A DNA stretch of 64,000 bases, taken from the NCBI GenBank assembly GCA_965208325.1, contig OZ242326.1:3264001-3328000 (forward strand). The letters run 5' to 3'. The DNA comes from Candidatus Poribacteria bacterium (GTDB lineage Bacteria; Poribacteria; WGA-4E; PCPOR2b). The stretch's first letter is position 1, and each line of letters begins with the position of its first letter. Under the pieces are notes generated by a model. That model had not been told where the DNA came from. It did not search any database and saw nothing but the letters and a program-made list of their open reading frames with translations. Below are positions 2 through 15,739 of this stretch, in pieces. The translations under genes and the position numbers were made by a program.

Positions 2-778
2 GGCCATAGCCACACCGAGATGAAATCACAGCAGGCAAGCACGACGCAAGAGAAGTGGGTTTGCCCGATGCATCCCGAAGTTCAAGCGGATGAAATGATA
101 GAATGCGACATCTGCGGTATGGACTTAATTGAAAAACAAGTGCCGGTGGAGGCGCATGCCCATGCCGGCCATAGCCACTCCGAGATGGAATCACCGCACG
201 AAAGCGCGGCGCAAGAGAAGTGGGTTTGCCCGATGCATCCCGAAGTTCAAGCGGATGAAATGATAGAATGCGACATCTGCGGTATGGATTTGGTTAAGAG
301 CACGGTTCCAGCAAAATCAACTGCCCATGTAGGCATGGCTTCTGTGCAACAGGAACCTCCGCTGGTGTTCAAGTACGCTTGTCCCGACCACCCCGACCAG
401 TATGCGACACTGCCGGACAGATGTTCTATAGACGGCAAACCCCTGGTGATGACTGGAGAGGTCTTAGCGGTGCCTAAGAGCGCCGTAATTGACACCGGGT
501 TACGGAAGATTGTCTTCATTGACCGGGGTGAATCTGGCTACGAGCTGCTTGAAGTCGAGTTGGGGCCAGAAGCATGGGCGGAGGTTGAACACAACGGCCT
601 GGCGACCAAGCGGCGATTTTATCCCATTATTAAAGGGTTGAATCCCGGGGATATAGTGGTTACGAATGGGAACTACCTCCTCGACTCACAAACGCAATTA
701 ACCGGGTCAGCGGCGGGTGCGTATGGCGGTGCGATCGGCGGCGACGAAGGATCCAGCGCACCGTCGCATCGGCATTGA
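2..778 (+). CDS. cusB: CusB-like RND efflux periplasmic adaptor with heavy-metal-binding (CPMHP..C..CGM.L) repeats; 5'-partial
   Basis: Frame is open from the window edge. Two WVCPMHP...CDICGMDL repeats, a CPDHP variant, His-rich linkers and a C-terminal 'VLAVPKSAVIDTG..GDIVVTNGNYLLDS' adaptor motif; directly upstream of CusA. Confidence 0.85.
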   Translation, partial: GHSHTEMKSQQASTTQEKWVCPMHPEVQADEMIECDICGMDLIEKQVPVEAHAHAGHSHSEMESPHESAAQEKWVCPMHPEVQADEMIECDICGMDLVKSTVPAKSTAHVGMASVQQEPPLVFKYACPDHPDQYATLPDRCSIDGKPLVMTGEVLAVPKSAVIDTGLRKIVFIDRGESGYELLEVELGPEAWAEVEHNGLATKRRFYPIIKGLNPGDIVVTNGNYLLDSQTQLTGSAAGAYGGAIGGDEGSSAPSHRH

Positions 779-804
779 TGCCAATCAGTCTTCAGGAAAG
801 CGCT

Positions 805-3800
805 ATGGTAAACCGAATTATCGAAATCTGCATGGGGAACCGTCTACTCGTCCTTGTTACATTTGTGTTTTTGACAGCCGCGGGCTGGTGGGCGCTGAAT
901 CGTACTCCGATTGACGCTATTCCCGACATCGGCGAAAATCAGGTTATCGTGTTCGCCGATTGGTCCGGGAGGAGTCCGAGAGACATTGAAGATCAGGTAA
1001 TCTACCCGCTAAGTATTGCCATGCTTGGCATCCCCGATGTCAAAGATGTCCGGTCCACCTCGATGTTCAGTTTCGGATACATCAACATCATTTTCAAGGA
1101 CAATGTGGACTTCTATTGGGCGAGAACCCGAGTGCTCGAACGGATGAATCTCGCACAGAAGGACATGCCCCAAGGGGTGGTGCCGGTGTTGGGACCTGAT
1201 GCTACCGGCATCAGCCAGGTATTTTGGTACACCGTCGAAAACGGCTATTACTGTCCTGACCATCCGACAGAACGGTACGAGCAACCCGGAAAGTGCCCTG
1301 AAGATGGAGAGCCGCTGGTTGCTTCAAGGCTTGACCTACATGAACTCCGCACTTTGCAAGACTGGACGATTCGATACTATCTTGCTTCAGCCGACGGGGT
1401 ATCGGAGGTCGCATCAGTCGGCGGTTACGTGAAACAGTATCAAGTCGATGTCGATCCTAACCTGCTTTTGGCGTACAAAGTGCCGCTTTCAATGGTCTAT
1501 AATGCGATTCGGGACAGCAATGTCGATGTGGGTGCGAAGGTGGTTGAGGAAGGCGGGATGGAGTTCCTTATTCGGGGTTTGGGGTTCATAAAAAGCATTG
1601 AGGACATAGAGGACATCGTAGTCAAGGCGCACGAAGGTGTACCGGTGTACGTCAAGAACCTAGGCACAGTGACGGAGGGGCCAGACTTCCGGCGCGGGGC
1701 GTTGGACAAAGCGGGCGTGCCTGCGACCGGCGGCGTGGTGTTGATGCGATACGGCGACAATCCGTTGCGGGTAATCGAGAATGTGAAAGCGAAGATTGCT
1801 GAAATTGAACCGGGCCTTCCCGCCGGGGTTCGTATAGTACCCTTCTACGACCGGAGCCATCTGATTCACCGCGCGGCGGAAACACTAAAAGACACGCTAA
1901 TCGAGGAGATCGTTGTTGCGGCAGTCGTCATTATCTTCTTCTTGGGTCATGTGACCAACAGCCTGATTATCGCACTGGTATTGCCGTTGGGAGTGCTGCT
2001 CTCGTTCTTGGGCATGAAACTCGTCGGCTTGCCGTCGAATATCATGTCCATGGGCGGGATGGCGATTGCGATCGGTGTTATGGTGGATGCCGGAATCGTC
2101 ATGACGGAAAACATCACCCGCCTACTGCGGGAACCGCATGAAGGCGAGAGCAAACTGCAGGTCGCAACGCGTGCAGCAAAGGAGGTCGGACCGGCGATAT
2201 TTTACGCGATGCTGATTATTATCGTGGCGTTTATCCCGGTGTTTTCGTTGATGGGGCAGGCGGGCAAGCTGTTCAAACCGTTGGCGTTCACCAAAACTTT
2301 CGCGATGCTCGGCGCGGCGATTGTCGCGATTAGCCTCGTTCCGGTTTTGGCATCCATTCTACTTTCTGATCCAACGCGCCGCCCCAACATTTTCGGCCGC
2401 ATTATTGCAATCATCAGTTTCCCTTTGAGAAAATTCGCCGACGGCATCACTTGGATCCTAAAAGCCGTCTACGGTCCAATTATTCGATTTGCTGTCAAAA
2501 ACATATTCACCAAGCTGGTTGTAGTTGCTTTGGCCGCGGCAATTTTAATTGCGAGTATTCCGCTCACACCCTTCTACAAAAATATCGGGCAGGAGTTCAT
2601 GCCTCCGCTCAACGAAGGAGATTTGCTGTTCATGCCGGTGCTGCTGCCCGGCGCGTCGATTACGCAAGCCAAAGATGTGATGTCGAAGCAAGACATGATT
2701 ATGAACCGTTTCCCCGAGGTTTCGATGGTAGTGGGCAAACTCGGGCGAGCGACAACTGCAACTGATCCAGCTCCAATCGGGATGTTTGAAACCATCGTCA
2801 ACATCGTTGACCCTTCTACGTGGCCGCGGCGTGCCGTCAAATCGGGCGCTGCGGCGGACATGGTTTCCAGCGTTGCCAAACGACTTTTGAGCGCCGATAT
2901 CCTGAACAAGGAACATGCAGGACATATAACTACAGATGTTACGGCGCGTATCGCCGATGATGCGGCGGCACGGATTGATGAAATGGCGACGGAGTATCAC
3001 AATCCCTTTATCACTGTTGAGCAACGTGAACAGCTGTACCGAGTTTGGTTGTTGCGGGTGGTTATGGAAAAACTTCTGGCGGAGATGGGCGAATCAAGTC
3101 AACTAGGGGACAGCGAATCAGAGAGCCGACTTCACGCACTCGCCTCCGAGATTGAACCGACGCTTGAGCACAAAATCTACTTTCGCACAAAGACCCGCGC
3201 AGAGCTGATTAACGATCTCACCGAATCGTGCCGTATGCCCGGCGTTTCTCCAATTATGACCCAGCCGATTCGTAACCGCATCGACATGTTGGCGACAGGA
3301 ATTCAGACACCGATTGGTATCAAGGTGTTCGGAACTGATTTGGCAAAAATCGAGGAAATTGCGGTTCGCATTGAGCAGGAATTGCTCAAACTCCCGGGCG
3401 CGGTGGGACCGTATGCCGAGCGGATTGGAAATAAACCGTACCTCGAATTTCATATCGATCGGAAAGAGGCGGCGCGCTACGGGATTAAGATTGGGGCGGT
3501 GCAAAAGATTATTATGACCGCGATTGGCGGCATGAACATCACAACGACAGTCGAAGGGCGGGAGCGTTTTCCCGTTCGCATTCGCTATAAACGGGAATTG
3601 CGCGACAACGTTGAAGCGTTAAAGCGGGTGTTAGTCCCAACGCCCAAGGGCATACAGATTCCGCTAGGGCAATTGGTCAGAATTGAGCGCCGACCGGGTC
3701 CAGCGAAAATCTCATCCGAAAACACCTTGTTGTTTTCGCGGGTGTTCTGCGATGTGGATGCAGATGTCATCGGGCTAGTCAACTTCGTAGAGGCGGCGCA

Positions 3801-4575
3801 GAAGACACTCGACGAGAAAATCAAGCCGACGCTGCCGCAGGGCTATTTCTATTCATTCAGCGGCCAGTATGAAGCGGAATTGGAAGCGCGTTCCCGATTA
3901 CTGGTTGTTGTTCCGGTTTGCATCGCGGTGATTTTCATGCTGCTTTATATTAAGTTCCGTTCGCCATCCGCGATGCTAGCGATATTCCTAGCGCTGCCGT
4001 TCGCGTTTATCGGGGGAATGTGGATGCAGTGGTTGATGCAATATGTGCCCCCCGCGCTCGGCGGCGGATATGCGATTAAATACAGCACCGCCGTGTGGGT
4101 TGGGTATATAGCGCTTTTTGGTGTTGCGGTTGAGGACGGGATTGTATTGATGGAATACCTGCTTGAACGGGTACGAAGAGGCGAACCGGTTAAGGAAGCC
4201 GCCGTCAACGCGGGTTTGTTACGTGTGCGTCCCATCATCATGACGACCGCTACGACAGTGCTAGCGCTCGCTCCGATTATGCTGTATGAAATCAGCACCA
4301 ACACCGGGGCGGAGCTAATGAAACCAATTGCGGTGCCGACCTTCGGCGGAATGATCACTGCGACGGTTGCCAACTTGATTTTAGCGCCCGTGCTGTTTTC
4401 GCTGTTTTATTGGGTAGAAAACCTGGGTGCTCGGCATCGGGGTTCGGAAGGCGGGGAAACCTTGGAATCAGAAGAGTCGCCCGTACCATTGGCGGAAGAT
4501 GAGACTACTGGGGAAGAAATTCCGGCTAGCGACGACGAAACCACGGAGAACGGGGATTCGGAAGTACCGAAGTAA
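805..4575 (+). CDS. cusA: CusA/CzcA family heavy-metal efflux RND permease
   Basis: Motifs 'PIDAIPDIGENQVIV', 'GVMVDAGIVMTEN', 'EFMPPLNEGD', 'RVRPIIMT'. ATG at 805 chosen (ORF track starts at 775). Confidence 0.93.
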   Translation: MVNRIIEICMGNRLLVLVTFVFLTAAGWWALNRTPIDAIPDIGENQVIVFADWSGRSPRDIEDQVIYPLSIAMLGIPDVKDVRSTSMFSFGYINIIFKDNVDFYWARTRVLERMNLAQKDMPQGVVPVLGPDATGISQVFWYTVENGYYCPDHPTERYEQPGKCPEDGEPLVASRLDLHELRTLQDWTIRYYLASADGVSEVASVGGYVKQYQVDVDPNLLLAYKVPLSMVYNAIRDSNVDVGAKVVEEGGMEFLIRGLGFIKSIEDIEDIVVKAHEGVPVYVKNLGTVTEGPDFRRGALDKAGVPATGGVVLMRYGDNPLRVIENVKAKIAEIEPGLPAGVRIVPFYDRSHLIHRAAETLKDTLIEEIVVAAVVIIFFLGHVTNSLIIALVLPLGVLLSFLGMKLVGLPSNIMSMGGMAIAIGVMVDAGIVMTENITRLLREPHEGESKLQVATRAAKEVGPAIFYAMLIIIVAFIPVFSLMGQAGKLFKPLAFTKTFAMLGAAIVAISLVPVLASILLSDPTRRPNIFGRIIAIISFPLRKFADGITWILKAVYGPIIRFAVKNIFTKLVVVALAAAILIASIPLTPFYKNIGQEFMPPLNEGDLLFMPVLLPGASITQAKDVMSKQDMIMNRFPEVSMVVGKLGRATTATDPAPIGMFETIVNIVDPSTWPRRAVKSGAAADMVSSVAKRLLSADILNKEHAGHITTDVTARIADDAAARIDEMATEYHNPFITVEQREQLYRVWLLRVVMEKLLAEMGESSQLGDSESESRLHALASEIEPTLEHKIYFRTKTRAELINDLTESCRMPGVSPIMTQPIRNRIDMLATGIQTPIGIKVFGTDLAKIEEIAVRIEQELLKLPGAVGPYAERIGNKPYLEFHIDRKEAARYGIKIGAVQKIIMTAIGGMNITTTVEGRERFPVRIRYKRELRDNVEALKRVLVPTPKGIQIPLGQLVRIERRPGPAKISSENTLLFSRVFCDVDADVIGLVNFVEAAQKTLDEKIKPTLPQGYFYSFSGQYEAELEARSRLLVVVPVCIAVIFMLLYIKFRSPSAMLAIFLALPFAFIGGMWMQWLMQYVPPALGGGYAIKYSTAVWVGYIALFGVAVEDGIVLMEYLLERVRRGEPVKEAAVNAGLLRVRPIIMTTATTVLALAPIMLYEISTNTGAELMKPIAVPTFGGMITATVANLILAPVLFSLFYWVENLGARHRGSEGGETLESEESPVPLAEDETTGEEIPASDDETTENGDSEVPK

Positions 4576-5430: not shown

Positions 5431-7668
5431 ATGCCTCATTTTTGGATATTAATTCGCGTCCCACATGTTTTGCCTCAACAAGGCGCAATTCGATGTCTGC
5501 TGTTGTGGCTGCTGTTATGTCCGTTCATTGCGAGCGCACAACCGGACACGATGCAACCTCATACTTCAGCCTACCGAATATCCCAAGACATCAAGATTGA
5601 CGGGAATCTTGATGAGCCAGAATGGCAAAAAGCCCAGCCGATCAAGCGGTTCCTCCAAATACAACCGAACCAAGGGGAACCGATGACGCAGCCTTCGGAA
5701 GTGCGCATACTTTATGATGAGAAAAACCTCTACTTTGGTTTTACCTTTTACGACTCTGAGATTGAAAAACTGGTTGCCAATGAGATGCGCCGGGATTCTG
5801 ACGGTTTGCGATCCAACGACTACGGTTATCTGCTCTTGGACACATACAATGATCGGCGAAACGCCGTTTTCTTCCGTTTCAATCCGTTGGGCGGGATGGA
5901 AGATACGGCGGTGTCAAACAGCGGCGATAGTCTAAATGGGAGCTGGGATATGGTTTGGGAGTGCCGCAGCAAAATCAGTGCGGACCGGTGGGCATCGGAG
6001 ATTGCTATTCCGTTCAGCCAGCTTCGCTTTAAACGAAGCGACGTGATGACATGGGGAATGAACTTCGGGCGGGAAATTGCGCGGAACCAAGAGATTGGGG
6101 GGTGGAATCCTGCACCGAAGACGTATGGCCCGCTAGGTAAATACCGCACCGCCTACTTCGGCAGTCTCGTTGGTTTGGAGGGTATTTCCCCGTCGCGGCA
6201 TCTGGAAGTGCTGCCTTATGTGCTGTCGGGTGCAAGCCGCATCGCCGCTGAAGGTGAAACCGATGAGGTGTTTGAAGGCGGTTTGGACCTGAAGTATGGA
6301 ATAACACCAAATTTAACTGCCGATTTAACCTTTAACACTGATTTCGCCCAAGTCGAAGCTGACCAAGAACAGGTAAACCTTACCCGTTTCGACCTCTTTT
6401 TCCCTGAGCAGCGACCGTTTTTCTTGGAAGGTGCAAGCATCTTCGATGTGGGCGTTCCACGTACCGGTTTTCACCGCCCGCCGCCCTTACTGCTGTTTTA
6501 CAGCCGCCGCATCGGCCTTGCTGAAGAACGCGCCATCCCGATACTCACCGGGGGAAAAATGACCGGGAAAGTCGGCGCTTACAATATCGGGTTTTTGAAT
6601 GTGTTGACGGACAGGTTTACGGATGATGATTCTCGGGCGGATGTGGACCGCGTCGATGAACCGCGCACAAACTATTCGGTAATGCGCGTAACGCGGGACA
6701 TCTTCAGCGGTTCCTCCATCGGTGCGATCGCCGTCAATAAGCAGGATGCCGACGTGTACAACCGCACGGCGGGGCTTGACTTTTCGTATCGCCCGAAGCG
6801 GGATATGGATTTCCGCGGGCTATTGGCGCGCACATTTGAAGAAGGTGTCTCCGAGCAAGACAGTGCCGTCTACTTTGGCGGCGATTGGCGAACGAACCGG
6901 TTTAAACTCGACGGTTCGTATATCGACATCGGCGAGGATTTTAATCCGGGAGTTGGATTTGTTCATCGCAGCGGCATCCGCGGCTTTCGCGGCAACGCCC
7001 GCTATACGCCGTGGCCGCGGGCATACGGCATTCGACGCATTGAGATTGGACCGCAGTTTGACTTGGTTCTCAATCGAGAGAACACGTTGGAGACACGTGA
7101 GACAAAGTTCGACACTGAATTGCAGTTTGAATCGGGCGATTGGGCCGGTTTCCAAGTCCAGAACACGACAGAACATCTGCGTGAAGAATTCTCGATCCAG
7201 GAGGCAATCATCGCAGTTGGCGATTACGATTTTACGTCGTTTTTTGCATGGGTCGAGACCAGCAACAGCCGGAATATCTTCGGGACGTTCATCGTTCAAC
7301 TAGGTGAATACTATAGCGGCGACATACGCGGTGTTCGAATTGACGGGGCAATCAAGCCCAATGCCCGCCTGAGTATGGAGTCGCTGGTCGAGTTCAACCG
7401 CATCACGTTCCCTGATAAGGCGTTCAATGCCAACGTTTTCGGGGGGCGCGTGAGCTATTCCTTTTCGACGACGCTCTTTACGAAGTTGTTTGCCCAATGG
7501 AGCAGCGAAAAGGACGCAATCTCCACGAATTTTCTAGTAAACTTCATCTACCGCCCCGGCAGCGATTTCTACCTGGTTTTCAACCAGAATTACGATACGG
7601 GCGGCGGCGGGGCAAATCTCCTAGACTGGACACTCGTAGGGAAGATGACGTATTGGTGGAATCCGTAA
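5431..7668 (+). CDS. CBM9-like domain / DUF5916 outer-membrane protein
   Basis: 'IKIDGNLDEPEW', 'EIAIPFSQLRF', 'NTDFAQVEAD..VNLTRF.LFFPEQRPFFLEG', aromatic C-terminus (YWWNP). Confidence 0.8.
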   Translation: MPHFWILIRVPHVLPQQGAIRCLLLWLLLCPFIASAQPDTMQPHTSAYRISQDIKIDGNLDEPEWQKAQPIKRFLQIQPNQGEPMTQPSEVRILYDEKNLYFGFTFYDSEIEKLVANEMRRDSDGLRSNDYGYLLLDTYNDRRNAVFFRFNPLGGMEDTAVSNSGDSLNGSWDMVWECRSKISADRWASEIAIPFSQLRFKRSDVMTWGMNFGREIARNQEIGGWNPAPKTYGPLGKYRTAYFGSLVGLEGISPSRHLEVLPYVLSGASRIAAEGETDEVFEGGLDLKYGITPNLTADLTFNTDFAQVEADQEQVNLTRFDLFFPEQRPFFLEGASIFDVGVPRTGFHRPPPLLLFYSRRIGLAEERAIPILTGGKMTGKVGAYNIGFLNVLTDRFTDDDSRADVDRVDEPRTNYSVMRVTRDIFSGSSIGAIAVNKQDADVYNRTAGLDFSYRPKRDMDFRGLLARTFEEGVSEQDSAVYFGGDWRTNRFKLDGSYIDIGEDFNPGVGFVHRSGIRGFRGNARYTPWPRAYGIRRIEIGPQFDLVLNRENTLETRETKFDTELQFESGDWAGFQVQNTTEHLREEFSIQEAIIAVGDYDFTSFFAWVETSNSRNIFGTFIVQLGEYYSGDIRGVRIDGAIKPNARLSMESLVEFNRITFPDKAFNANVFGGRVSYSFSTTLFTKLFAQWSSEKDAISTNFLVNFIYRPGSDFYLVFNQNYDTGGGGANLLDWTLVGKMTYWWNP

Positions 7669-7974
7669 ACATGCGTTTCGGCGCGGCAAATTTCCTTCGT
7701 AGAACCGCTTCGAGTCGTCCGACACCCCATACAACTCTCGTCCGATTTGATAAGGTTTAGGCATTTTATACAATCCACAACGTTATGTTGCTGTGAACCG
7801 CTCCCAGATACGCCGTCCTCGATTCAATATACATGGTTGGGCTTTCCGCGTCTGCATTTTCCAGACCAATCTCTCACTCTACACGTTCACACACGCAATC
7901 GGAATATTTCTGGCTGAATAGTCAAATCAGATTTTGAGGCGTTTGGCTTTTTCCTTACAAAGCCCAAAACATTG

Positions 7975-9147
7975 ATGAAAACTTCCAACAACAGGATCGC
8001 CCTTAATTTTGACGACACCGCAGAAGTGTCAGTCAAAGGCTTTATTGCCCCGATTGAATATACCCAATACAACTTCCATGAAAGGTGGGACGCATTGGCG
8101 AATCTACGGGTTGCTGAGCCAGAAAAGCGATACTCTGCGTCAGATTTTCGTGCGTTTCTTCCTGACGAAGCGGTATCGGTTGGTGAGGTCTGGCAAATTG
8201 AAGAGGAGGGTGTGCTGACGTTGTTGCGGCAACTTCACCCCAATCCACATCTGGATATGCACATTGATGTGGGGGATTCCCGTGGGTTGTGGGCGTGTCT
8301 ACGCGCTTATAACCATCAACTTGCCCATGTTGTGTTCCGCATTCATGCAGAATTTGCGTTGACGGACGGTTGGTTCACACCCTCCCAATTCGCCGGACAT
8401 TTAGTTATCGATCGAATTGAAGACAAGATTGTATTTTTCCAGATGCGCTTACCTGATGGTGTAATGAACTTCGATGTTAACTGGCGAACGACAGAAGAAG
8501 GGTGGGAGCGGTCTATAGTAATTACCGATATCGGCTTCTGTCCACAAATGGAATTACGTGCCGGAATGGAAGCCGGCGTGCAAGACTTTAAATTCATTGA
8601 AGCCATTACGCAAGAAGAAGCCGCGCGCAATTTGATACTGTGTTTTTACAAATCCCAGCAAATTCATTGGGTATCGCTGGAAGAAGCGTTGAAAATCGCA
8701 CCGGTGCAACAGAAGCCGATTCATGCCATATCAATTGATGGGCCGCTGGCTGACGAGGCGTGTTGAGGGAGCGGTAAAGCCTTGAGGGCAGTTGCCCTCT
8801 CACATGACCGGGTCATCAAGTTTTTGAACGAAAATTTCATCAACACTTGGGCAACCAATGCCGAATTAGGGCGTACTTCTAGCCTGCGAGACCCTATTGC
8901 GAAGAGACGCAGGCGCGAATCCAACAGCTTTGACACAACGTCCCCTTTGGTGCAAGCAATCAATAGGGGATGGCAAGAAGGTTCGCCGGTGGATTGCTTG
9001 GTTATATCGCCCGACTTTGAACTGAAAGGGCAACTTCCGCTCAATGAATTCCTTCAGAACGCCCGGAGTAAGGGCATCCGGCAAGAGGAGAGTTACCTAA
9101 CGTTTCTCGTGCAATCGTTAGAAGGGAAACAGCCTGGATTGGAGTAG
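7975..9147 (+). CDS. Selenoprotein N (SELENON)-like protein; in-frame TGA 8764-8766 predicted as selenocysteine (~390 aa)
   Basis: ORFs 7972-8766 and 8782-9147 are in frame. The junction reads DGPLADEAC-TGA-GSGKALR; other SELENON-like motifs are FRIHAEF, DIGFCPQMEL and FLNENFINTW. A hairpin follows the TGA. Confidence 0.85.
8767..8803 (+). promoter_or_regulatory. Putative bacterial SECIS element
   Basis: GAGGGCA-GT-TGCCCTC hairpin at 8784-8799; apical G at 8791, 25 nt after the UGA. Confidence 0.65.
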
Positions 9148-9224
9148 TCGCCAATCCTATCAACGAGCGAACCGCGTAACCGAAATCACCGCAATCGACA
9201 GAAAACAAGCATCGGCTGGTTTTG

Positions 9225-9659
9225 CTACTTCGTGTTACTAGCGCGCAGCAGGTGGATTCCCATTGCACCGTTCAACACCGGTAGCAGCGCATCGAAGAAG
9301 GTCCACACCAGCGAACGGACATCTGCGCTGACCGCGGTAAAATCTTTTGCAGCCTTGCTGATGCCGAACCAGTTCCAGAAAAAGAGTATGGCAGCGAACA
9401 CGAACCCGTAGAAAAGCGCGTTGGCTGTGATGAACTCTTTAACCTTCGGATTCTCGCGGGTGCGGCGTATGCGTAGGTATCCGAATTCCAAGCCTACAAT
9501 AATAGAGATTGCGGAGAGCGGGTCAATTATTTTCCAGATGCGGCTGTACGGATGATCGCTTGAGGACGTGTGGTAGATTGGCTCAATAATAGTGTGGATG
9601 GCGACGATGGCTCCAATTAGAATTAGAACTACGCCAAAGAACCGTTTGAGTCCTTCCAT
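9225..9659 (-). CDS. Four-TM membrane hypothetical protein (paralog of 10042-10476)
   Basis: Four hydrophobic segments; high similarity to the neighbouring ORF. Confidence 0.75.
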   Translation of the reverse strand: MEGLKRFFGVVLILIGAIVAIHTIIEPIYHTSSSDHPYSRIWKIIDPLSAISIIVGLEFGYLRIRRTRENPKVKEFITANALFYGFVFAAILFFWNWFGISKAAKDFTAVSADVRSLVWTFFDALLPVLNGAMGIHLLRASNTK

Positions 9660-14917: not shown

Positions 14918-15739
14918 TTGGCGAAACGCGGCAGCGAAGCATTTCCCATTAGCCTACTGTGTAATGTGCTCGGCTTGTCTCGAAGCAGTTTCTATTACGA
15001 TTCCAAAGCCGAGGGTGATGCTCAGCTTTGCCGGCATATCGAGCAAATACGTTTATCAAATCACCGCTATGGGTATCGCAGAATCACAAATGAACTGCAT
15101 CGTCAAGGATTGGTTGTCAACCGAAAACGGGTTCAACGTCTGGTTGGCACACTAGGGCTTCGGGTACGTCCTAGGCGAAAGCGGGTGATTACCACCAACA
15201 GTCAACCCGGACGATATGCGTATCCGAATTTGCTCAAAGATTTATCGGCCACTTATCCTGACCAGATTTGGTGTGCAGATATCACCTATATTCCACTGGC
15301 TAGTGGTCAAGTGGCTTATCTGGCGTTATTGTTTGATGTTTTTACTCGAACCATAAGAGGCTGATCGCGAAACATGTCAGTTAACTTGCTGTCTTGGGCA
15401 TTGAGGAGAAAAGCATTAGCAAGACAGCATCGTCCGCAAATCCATCATTCAGACCGTGGTGGACAGTACATTGCTGAGAAGTATTGTCAGCAATTGAGAG
15501 CGATAGCGTGCCGCATTTCCATGACGGAGCGTGGGAAACCGTGGCAGAATCCATACGTTGAGAGTACGATTAGCAGAATCAAAGACGAGTATATCGTTGA
15601 CTCCGAGTATCAGAATTTCCACGATGCGTACAACCAACTATGTCCAGTATTAGATGTCGTGTATAATCAGACAAGGCCTCATTCAGCGCTAGGCTATCGG
15701 ACACCTGCTGAATTCGAGGCCGCGTATAATGCACACTAG
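14918..15739 (+). pseudogene. IS3 transposase OrfB (DDE), premature TGA at 15362
   Basis: 'W.ADITY', 'HHSDRGGQY', 'YNQTRPHSALGY.TP'; the conserved GW position reads G-stop. Confidence 0.85.

Follow-up and report, generated by a model that had tools for sequence, protein, structure and literature searches.

A homologue of animal selenoprotein N in a poribacterial genome, very probably decoded with selenocysteine

Does the TGA triplet at positions 8764-8766 of a poribacterial DNA stretch end a gene, or does it encode selenocysteine (Sec) within a longer protein? The triplet lies in 64,000 nucleotides from Candidatus Poribacteria bacterium (assembly GCA_965208325.1, contig OZ242326.1, positions 3,264,001 to 3,328,000 of the forward strand). 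This whole stretch, with a GC content of 49%, is called the window, and positions refer to it unless another contig is named. A first-pass annotation made from the letters alone had proposed that two open reading frames (ORFs) join here across the TGA to encode a bacterial homologue of animal selenoprotein N (SELENON). We conclude that the TGA is very probably a selenocysteine codon, and we are highly confident that the gene is a Sec-decoded SELENON homologue.

Read-through protein and its relation to selenoprotein N

The frame starting at TTG 7972 or ATG 7975 halts at TGA 8764-8766 and resumes in phase up to TAG 9145-9147, so that the two ORFs join across a single TGA exactly as first written. 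Between 7975 and 9147 there is no other stop and no frameshift. The read-through product has 390 residues, in agreement with the length of about 390 estimated at first, and contains “...HAISIDGPLADEAC-U-GSGKALRAVALSHDRVIKFLNENFINTW...”, with the context “...DGPLADEAC-U-GSGKALRAVALSHDRVIKFLNENFINTW...” around the Sec. The two segments that had been ascribed to animal SELENON, FRIHAEF and DIG..PQMEL, were found at residues 121-127 and, in the form DIGFCPQMEL, at residues 185-194. The N-terminus (MKTSNNRIALNFDD...) is hydrophilic, and neither there nor in the upstream in-frame sequence of the window gene was a hydrophobic stretch found that could form a transmembrane anchor; for this copy the proposed lack of an anchor was right. 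In the public protein collection the window protein is present solely as a fragment of 263 amino acids (P0002). Entries of 253-283 residues, corresponding to N-terminal halves, are numerous there. Of the best 120 of 1899 hits, 108 cover 62-67% of the query, which means that they end at the same place, and the remaining 12 are full length. The expectation that standard gene callers miss the gene was thus borne out.

The likeness to SELENON, which the first-pass annotation had stated without an alignment, now stands as homology by alignment. SELENON of the wombat (P0264, UniRef A0A4X2KGP4) matches the window protein with an E-value of 7.5e-20 in phmmer and of 3e-27 in BLASTP, the latter with 28% identity over residues 83-293. 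In this alignment FRIHAEF is identical, DLGYLPQMEL stands opposite DIGFCPQMEL, and DDQSC-SGRTLRE...LLNEKFISTW stands opposite DEAC-U-G-SGKALRA...FLNENFINTW. The motif common to the window protein and SELENON is C-U-G-S-G-[KR]-x-L-R. The wombat gene model skips “UG” at the Sec site, as do many vertebrate models, and a fish-like Logan record (P0334) reads QSCWGSGR, where the W is taken to be a TGA called as Trp, judging from the sequence. For 68 of the 119 listed relatives of P0264, from a range of vertebrates, the source gives the name selenoprotein N, selenoprotein N-like or SELN protein; the remaining ones are labelled as EF-hand domain-containing, hypothetical or uncharacterized proteins or bear no label. 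In an alignment of 32 sequences the animal protein aligns with bacterial residues ~17 to ~382, and the animal additions are N-terminal. A search of the ESM Atlas with the Cys form P0128 returned a cluster named “Selenoprotein N” as the nearest one (score 0.93, 208 of 256 features), followed in second and third place by two bacterial clusters with Planctomycetota as the commonest phylum. In the available part of a review on SELENON, the Sec of the animal protein is placed in an SCUG motif (PMC12839072). Based on the shared domain, the shared Sec site and the shared fold, the bacterial protein is a member of the SELENON family.

The UGA codon, its hairpin and the decoding machinery

The codon at the Sec column was TGA in all 134 gene copies that span the site. 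These copies come from 70 loci, almost all of Poribacteria, obtained in a scan with one genome per species (67 Candidatus or uncultured Poribacteria and 3 uncultured bacterium), and many of the loci carry two to four tandem paralogues. In the related copies the TGA is preceded by DE[AS]C and followed by G[ST]GK.LR; the window motif is A-C-U-G-S-G-K, while most relatives have S-C-U-G-S-G-K. Two metagenome contigs with 59-63% GC have TGA at this place, too. Homology extends to both sides of the codon: tblastn alignments of the read-through protein to related loci extend over residues 1-389, and the ratio of nonsynonymous to synonymous substitution rates (dN/dS) between the window gene and 9 related copies was 0.07-0.20 in the part before the TGA and 0.16-0.34 in the part after it, both ranges covering the comparisons without saturation of dS. 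Among 1.84 billion representative proteins, phmmer found 411 clusters at E ≤ 0.001 and 278 at ≤ 1e-10. Within the best 150 of the 411 clusters, 94 stop exactly at D[EDQ]xC and four have Cys at the U column, resulting in C-C at the site (P0126, P0128, P0139, P0146); apart from one cluster described below, the remainder are fragments falling short of the site. One of the Cys forms, P0126, is predicted as a single ORF of 668 residues fused behind an extracytoplasmic function (ECF) sigma factor (Sigma70_r2 + r4), a fusion that could be real or a merged gene call. Homology on both sides of the TGA, and TGA or Cys at its column, had been proposed as checks on the Sec reading; both were found, with a minority of paralogues having Gly or Trp instead.

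If the TGA were a true stop, the locus would encode two proteins, an N-terminal one of 263 residues and a thioredoxin-like one of 121 residues from TTG 8782. Gene callers annotate the locus in this way, and the halves stand separately in public collections (P0002 and the entries of 253-283 residues on the one side, the C-terminal P0142 and P0157 on the other). The TTG at 8782 is indeed in frame, but the 15 nt between the TGA and this TTG encode the conserved GSGK in frame. TAA or TAG would be expected among 134 copies of a real stop codon and neither is present, although both occur at the true ends of these genes (TAA 56 and TAG 25 times, besides TGA 42 times). Moreover, the homologues with Cys or Gly and those from animals each consist of one continuous chain, and AlphaFold2 gives one compact two-domain protein with a predicted template-modelling score (pTM) of 0.87. 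We consider the synthesis of two separate proteins very improbable, and the reading of the TGA as a Sec codon is followed further here.

Downstream of the TGA lies a hairpin resembling a selenocysteine insertion sequence (SECIS). The first-pass annotation had described it as a perfect hairpin with a stem of 7 bp and an apical GT about 25 nt downstream of the TGA. A perfect hairpin is present, with a 6-bp stem and an AGUU loop; the 7-bp stem with a loop of 2 nt is impossible, and the measured distances from the TGA are 17 nt to the start of the stem and 23 nt to the start of the loop. Taken alone, the hairpin folds with −11.6 kcal/mol (z −4.16), and none of 200 shuffled sequences folded equally well. 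The bacterial SECIS (bSECIS) model, in the part of the source available to us, has a loop of 3-9 nt, a stem of 4-16 bp, G in one of the first two loop positions, a distance of 16-37 nt between UGA and loop, and a free energy of at most −7.5 kcal/mol (PMC13188914). With 6 bp, a 4-nt loop with G in second position, 23 nt and −11.6 kcal/mol, the hairpin agrees with the model, and it covaries, as follows.

In an ungapped alignment of 135 sequences, 119 of them distinct, the six stem pairs are formed in 97.1% of the cells; as a control, pairing fell to 46-82% once the columns of the 3′ arm were slid. Double changes were present in 18 cells, and 0 of 500 shuffles matched the observed pairing or covariation. 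At pair 30-39, for example, G-C occurs 73, G-U 18 and A-U 17 times, and the compensatory changes from G-C to A-U sit at synonymous sites. The codon usage in the stem is biased accordingly: in the 5′ arm Arg is encoded by AGR in all 132 distinct copies, compared with 29% of the Arg codons in the rest of these genes, in the 3′ arm Leu is encoded by CTC in 125 of 132, compared with 17% in the rest, and AGA is accompanied by T at the partner position (NNT) in 22 of 24 copies. The metagenome contigs with 59-63% GC carry GAGAGCG-GGUC-CGCUCUC at the same offset of 17 nt from the TGA. The same four letters, GGUC, form the loop of the fdhF SECIS in E. coli. An extended SECIS fold with a lower stem GGGAG/CUCUC was rejected: it is paired in 88.7% but shows no covariation, and 486 of 500 shuffles paired equally. 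Rfam gave no match over positions 7600-9400 at E-values up to 1.

The genome encodes the complete machinery for Sec insertion, whose presence had been proposed as a check as well. Profile scores for selD (376.8), selB (373.5), selA (588.7) and tRNA-Sec (selC; 77.5 bits) were all above the curated cut-offs, and selA, selB and tRNA-Sec lie together at 2.04 Mb. The selD gene has an in-frame TGA of its own and is probably a selenoprotein gene in this genome. Among 49 tRNAs detected with aragorn, the anticodon UCA (tca) occurs in tRNA-SeC alone. TGA closes 657 of the 1916 long open frames of the genome, and the genetic code is therefore standard.

These results also bear on the idea that the UGA is decoded as Trp, Gly or Cys by an altered code or by near-cognate suppression. 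Gly and Trp do occur at the column in some paralogues, and GGA and TGG are one base away from TGA. Such decoding is nevertheless hard to combine with the termination of 657 long frames by TGA, with a UCA anticodon confined to tRNA-Sec, with a complete Sec system and a SECIS-type hairpin at the canonical distance, and with the Sec that the animal homologue has at this very residue according to the available part of the source (PMC12839072). We give it a probability as low as that of two separate proteins. That the gene is a pseudogene with a recent nonsense mutation, to which the sole copy in this genome and its short form without the usual C-terminal domain might be attributed, is the least probable of these explanations, as the same TGA is found in 134 of 134 copies and in the distant 59-63% GC contigs, dN/dS is well under 1 on both sides, and there are no further stops or frameshifts.

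Several observations weigh against a Sec-decoded SELENON homologue. Sec insertion at this UGA is inferred by analogy. All nine aligned full-length database paralogues have Gly at the column, with the motif C-G-[AG]-S-G-K (S-G in one of the nine); in addition, they carry a signal peptide and an insert of 29 residues and are extended at the C-terminus. In the group of P0012 orthologues (seven matches at L091-L097, 71-86% identical to P0012) the codon is TGA in three, GGA in two and GGC in two, so that four of the seven have Gly; the alternation of Sec and Gly looks like a natural, recent loss of Sec. Trp is found at the column in one of the best 150 clusters (P0123), which has code-11 sources and a degenerate motif. 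The existence of Gly and Trp forms means that some lineages can do without the Sec residue. Four of four Gly forms retain the stem, and hence a conserved stem alone does not prove a role as SECIS; the two GGC forms no longer have the loop G. On the window sequence RNAfold favours a competing extended fold of −16.7 kcal/mol, which is the extended fold without covariation in the family described above. DNA encoding the Cys form was not found in two metagenome scans, the second of which gave three loci, two with TGA and one short of the site. Pfam and NCBIfam gave no usable match to the read-through protein at E-values up to 1, and Pfam had no match for the animal P0264 either; the sole hit in a sequence search of the PDB was Numb (E 0.52), taken as chance. 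Transcript data are sparse: short contigs of low depth with 90-99% identity fell on parts of the gene in one sponge metatranscriptome, and no RNA bridging the TGA was found in four metatranscriptome runs, three of which cover just a conserved piece of 33 nt. Metatranscriptome libraries may also contain DNA. Finally, the window copy is one of seven short forms without the additional C-terminal domain present in most poribacterial copies, which is absent from 9148-9224.

Table 1. Coordinates of the gene, its elements and the other features mentioned in the text. Positions refer to the window unless preceded by a contig or locus handle.
Feature	Position	Strand	Remarks
Bacterial SELENON homologue gene	7975..9147	+	390-codon frame, ATG 7975 (alternative TTG 7972), one UGA very probably read through, TAG 9145-9147
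N-terminal beta-rich domain (predicted), residues 17-197	8023..8565	+	FRIHAEF, NFD, PQMEL conserved with animal SELENON
C-terminal thioredoxin-fold domain (predicted), residues 213-382	8611..9120	+	C-U dyad ahead of its first helix
Cys263 (TGT) and probable Sec264 (TGA), vicinal C-U redox dyad	8761..8766	+	TGA 134/134; same column as Sec of animal SCUG
SECIS-like hairpin	8784..8799	+	stem GAGGGC 8784-8789 / GCCCUC 8794-8799, loop AGUU 8790-8793
selA, selB, tRNA-Sec	G000:C1:2041505-2044983	-	
selD	G000:C1:4481278-4482201	-	in-frame TGA
Members of the divergent subfamily	L040:53-1144, L041:993-2159, L074:76-1227, L023:4198-5064, L088:4151-4993		
HMBD protein and RND transporter	20-4575		
Paralogous protein, 144 residues	9225-9659	-	convergent to the selenoprotein gene
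Paralogous protein, 149 residues	10042-10491	-	convergent to the selenoprotein gene
Adjacent transposase-like ORFs	14918-15739		

Predicted fold, possible function and known systems

In the AlphaFold2 model, calculated from the alignment of 32 sequences, the two domains are predicted with a mean local confidence (pLDDT) of 90.2, and C263-U264 lies in a loop between strand 249-254 and helix 268-272. Comparison of the modelled C-terminal domain by VIA-align gave DsbH (2ju5; Z 12.0, root mean square deviation 3.5 over 125 residues), the DsbD-gamma-like 3f9u (Z 11.2), AGR3 (3ph9; Z 10.8) and UAS domains (Z 9.3 for UBXD7, 2dlx, and 8.1), and the top Foldseek match was 7tkv, a Thioredox_DsbH protein (E 3.2e-4). 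According to the model, the C-terminal domain is thus a thioredoxin fold of the DsbH/AGR/UAS kind, and judging from the order of its secondary structure elements, without a residue-level superposition, the dyad appears to sit where CxxC lies in thioredoxin folds. The CxxC or CxxS active site of the classical thioredoxin/DsbH family is not present; the site is C-U-G-S, and the fold alone is shared. The N-terminal domain was modelled alone with a mean pLDDT of 92.6. It had no Foldseek match at E ≤ 0.001, and its best VIA-align Z was 5.2, to generic small beta-barrels, which is no demonstration of a new fold. Residues of this domain common to animals include R122, H124, N165, P160 and others, and their conservation suggests that both domains act as one unit.

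We propose the following mechanism by analogy. SelB carrying Sec-tRNA(Sec) would bind the hairpin that begins 17 nt after UGA 8764-8766, and Sec would be inserted there in place of termination. Cys263-Sec264 may then cycle between the selenolate/thiol and the selenenylsulfide form, as the GCUG of thioredoxin reductase and the SCUG of SELENON suggest, and the product could be a soluble reductase of oxidised cysteines on a partner protein, or of a small oxidant. We infer the redox cycle, the substrate and the cellular location of the protein. Due to the lack of a signal peptide the window copy is probably cytoplasmic. Redox activity towards a partner, for example of the type directed at SERCA2, would be a prediction by analogy for the bacterial protein.

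The likeness to SELENON spans nearly the whole bacterial protein and includes [AS]-C-U-G-S-G-[KR]-x-L-R followed by LLNE.FI.TW, with the Sec next to Cys in a thioredoxin-like domain. In contrast to SELENON, the bacterial protein has no N-terminal transmembrane anchor and no EF-hand, and starts where the conserved luminal domain starts. The EF-hand region is missing from it in the 32-sequence alignment; the Pfam result by itself carries little weight here, since no EF-hand was detected with it in the animal P0264 either. Furthermore, the bacterial Sec hairpin lies inside the coding sequence, whereas the animal SECIS is in the 3′-untranslated region, and the poribacterial genomes have 1-15 copies, most of them with an extra C-terminal domain that SELENON does not have. 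Bacterial thioredoxin-fold selenoproteins that depend on SelB and bSECIS (Trx-like, Prx-like and DsbA-like) are similar in having a UGA at the redox site, Cys homologues, a downstream hairpin and selA/selB/selC/selD, as far as the accessible part of the source goes (Table 1 of PMC13188914). They differ in that the poribacterial protein has a vicinal C-U, not UxxC or CxxU, and a large conserved N-terminal domain. In structure the C-terminal domain comes closest to the DsbH/Thioredoxin_7-like, AGR2/AGR3/ERp19 and UAS folds, but these share only 11-18% sequence identity with it, have no sequence-level match and use another active-site motif.

In mammalian thioredoxin reductase the GCUG motif lies on the flexible C-terminal tail of a flavoprotein. 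The adjacent Cys-Sec followed by Gly is a likeness to this motif, and SELENON is compared with it in the same way in the available part of PMC12839072. In contrast, the bacterial dyad is internal, at the active-site position of a thioredoxin fold, and the two proteins are not homologous.

As far as the accessible text extends, an inventory of 119 prokaryotic selenoprotein families from May 2026 has no SELENON-like entry and gives only SelD, GPX, deiodinase-like, SELENOW-like and MsrA as families common with eukaryotes (PMC13188914). The window protein did not match the NCBIfam and Pfam models cited in the available portion of its table. The 2026 review on SELENON is silent on bacteria in the part that was available (PMC12839072), and a full-text literature search, made outside subscription journals and InterPro/PANTHER, found no description of a bacterial SELENON homologue. 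Table S9 of PMC4807772, also available in part, contains unnamed “hypothetical” planctomycete selenoprotein candidates, whose mapping to the SELENON-like family was not achieved. The SELENON-like family is therefore an addition to the prokaryotic selenoprotein inventory, at present unlisted there.

Mutations in SELENON cause congenital myopathies. To our knowledge, little is established about its catalytic reaction, substrate range and structure, one reason being that it is a glycosylated membrane selenoprotein of the endoplasmic reticulum. A soluble bacterial homologue offers a route to structure and enzymology via the Cys forms and the hundreds of variants that occur in nature.

Family spread and gene neighbourhood

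In an even sample of the phylum Poribacteria the family was found in 61 of 81 genomes, with 1-15 matches each; only one copy is present in the genome from which the window comes. By family code, the genomes with the family number 4 of 12 in f1, 5 of 6 in f2, 51 of 53 in f3 and 0 of 9 in f4-f8. Among the matches listed, 150 of 150 had at least one TGA, and there were 195 further matches outside the listing. Because annotation splits hundreds of these poribacterial genes into two “hypothetical proteins”, the selenoproteomes are badly undercounted. An extra beta-rich C-terminal domain of about 150 or 275 residues is present in 116 of 123 complete poribacterial copies (L021-L090, e.g. L021:3293 onward), with the pattern ...EVLDTFRTP..QDYTV..IDATAFENGGTL...NAF.A.ISV; P0012, a Gly form with this domain, had no Pfam match. 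A signal peptide or lipobox is found in some paralogues, and likewise in P0128 and P0146, both of which have Cys at the site.

Poribacteria also possess a divergent second subfamily with 31-36% identity to the window protein, the motif ESC-U-A-[NS]-GK and a hairpin with a GGUC loop (members in Table 1). At least one member of it has a lipoprotein-type signal.

The phylogeny was a quick unrooted maximum-likelihood tree of 73 sequences without invertebrates, in which 77 of the 150 representative hits were omitted and rows reaching the Sec column were favoured. The eight vertebrate SELENONs formed one long-branched clade with a support of 100, and a Poribacteria clade with the window gene stood deep among the other representatives. 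A recent transfer of SELENON from an animal host to its symbiont has no support in this unrooted tree, since the vertebrate clade is neither nested in nor beside the Poribacteria clade.

The bacterial members are evidence for an ancient family that is widespread in bacteria. We tentatively speculate, at less than even odds in our own judgement, that SELENON did not arise in animals but belongs, as one branch, to a large family of Cys-Sec oxidoreductases found mostly in bacteria. Its multiplication in Poribacteria could have produced a varied set of proteins for redox repair or sensing within an animal host. The representative clusters with Sec and with Cys stand at ~94 to 4, and up to 15 probably Sec-containing paralogues occur per poribacterial genome. 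If this speculation is true, the anchor-free bacterial proteins would be a tractable model for the reaction of the beta-domain plus C-U site of human SELENON, and many of the multiplied paralogues in the sponge-associated Poribacteria would be exported and carry an extra binding domain.

The genes surrounding the window copy encode a metal-efflux pump of the resistance-nodulation-division (RND) type, a DUF5916 protein and small membrane proteins, and none of them points to an operon partner. A scan for promoters and terminators yielded nothing exceeding the shuffled expectation. The pump region comprises a protein with a heavy-metal-binding domain (HMBD), followed by an AcrB/CusA-type RND transporter of 1266 residues with an HMBD-like stretch. 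The two paralogous proteins of 144 and 149 residues downstream are apparently membrane proteins, and one of the pair has a sub-threshold match to DUF6814. Further downstream, two adjacent ORFs carry HTH_21 plus the start of rve, and then rve/rve_3; they resemble an IS3-type transposase that is either interrupted by a frameshift or produced through programmed frameshifting.

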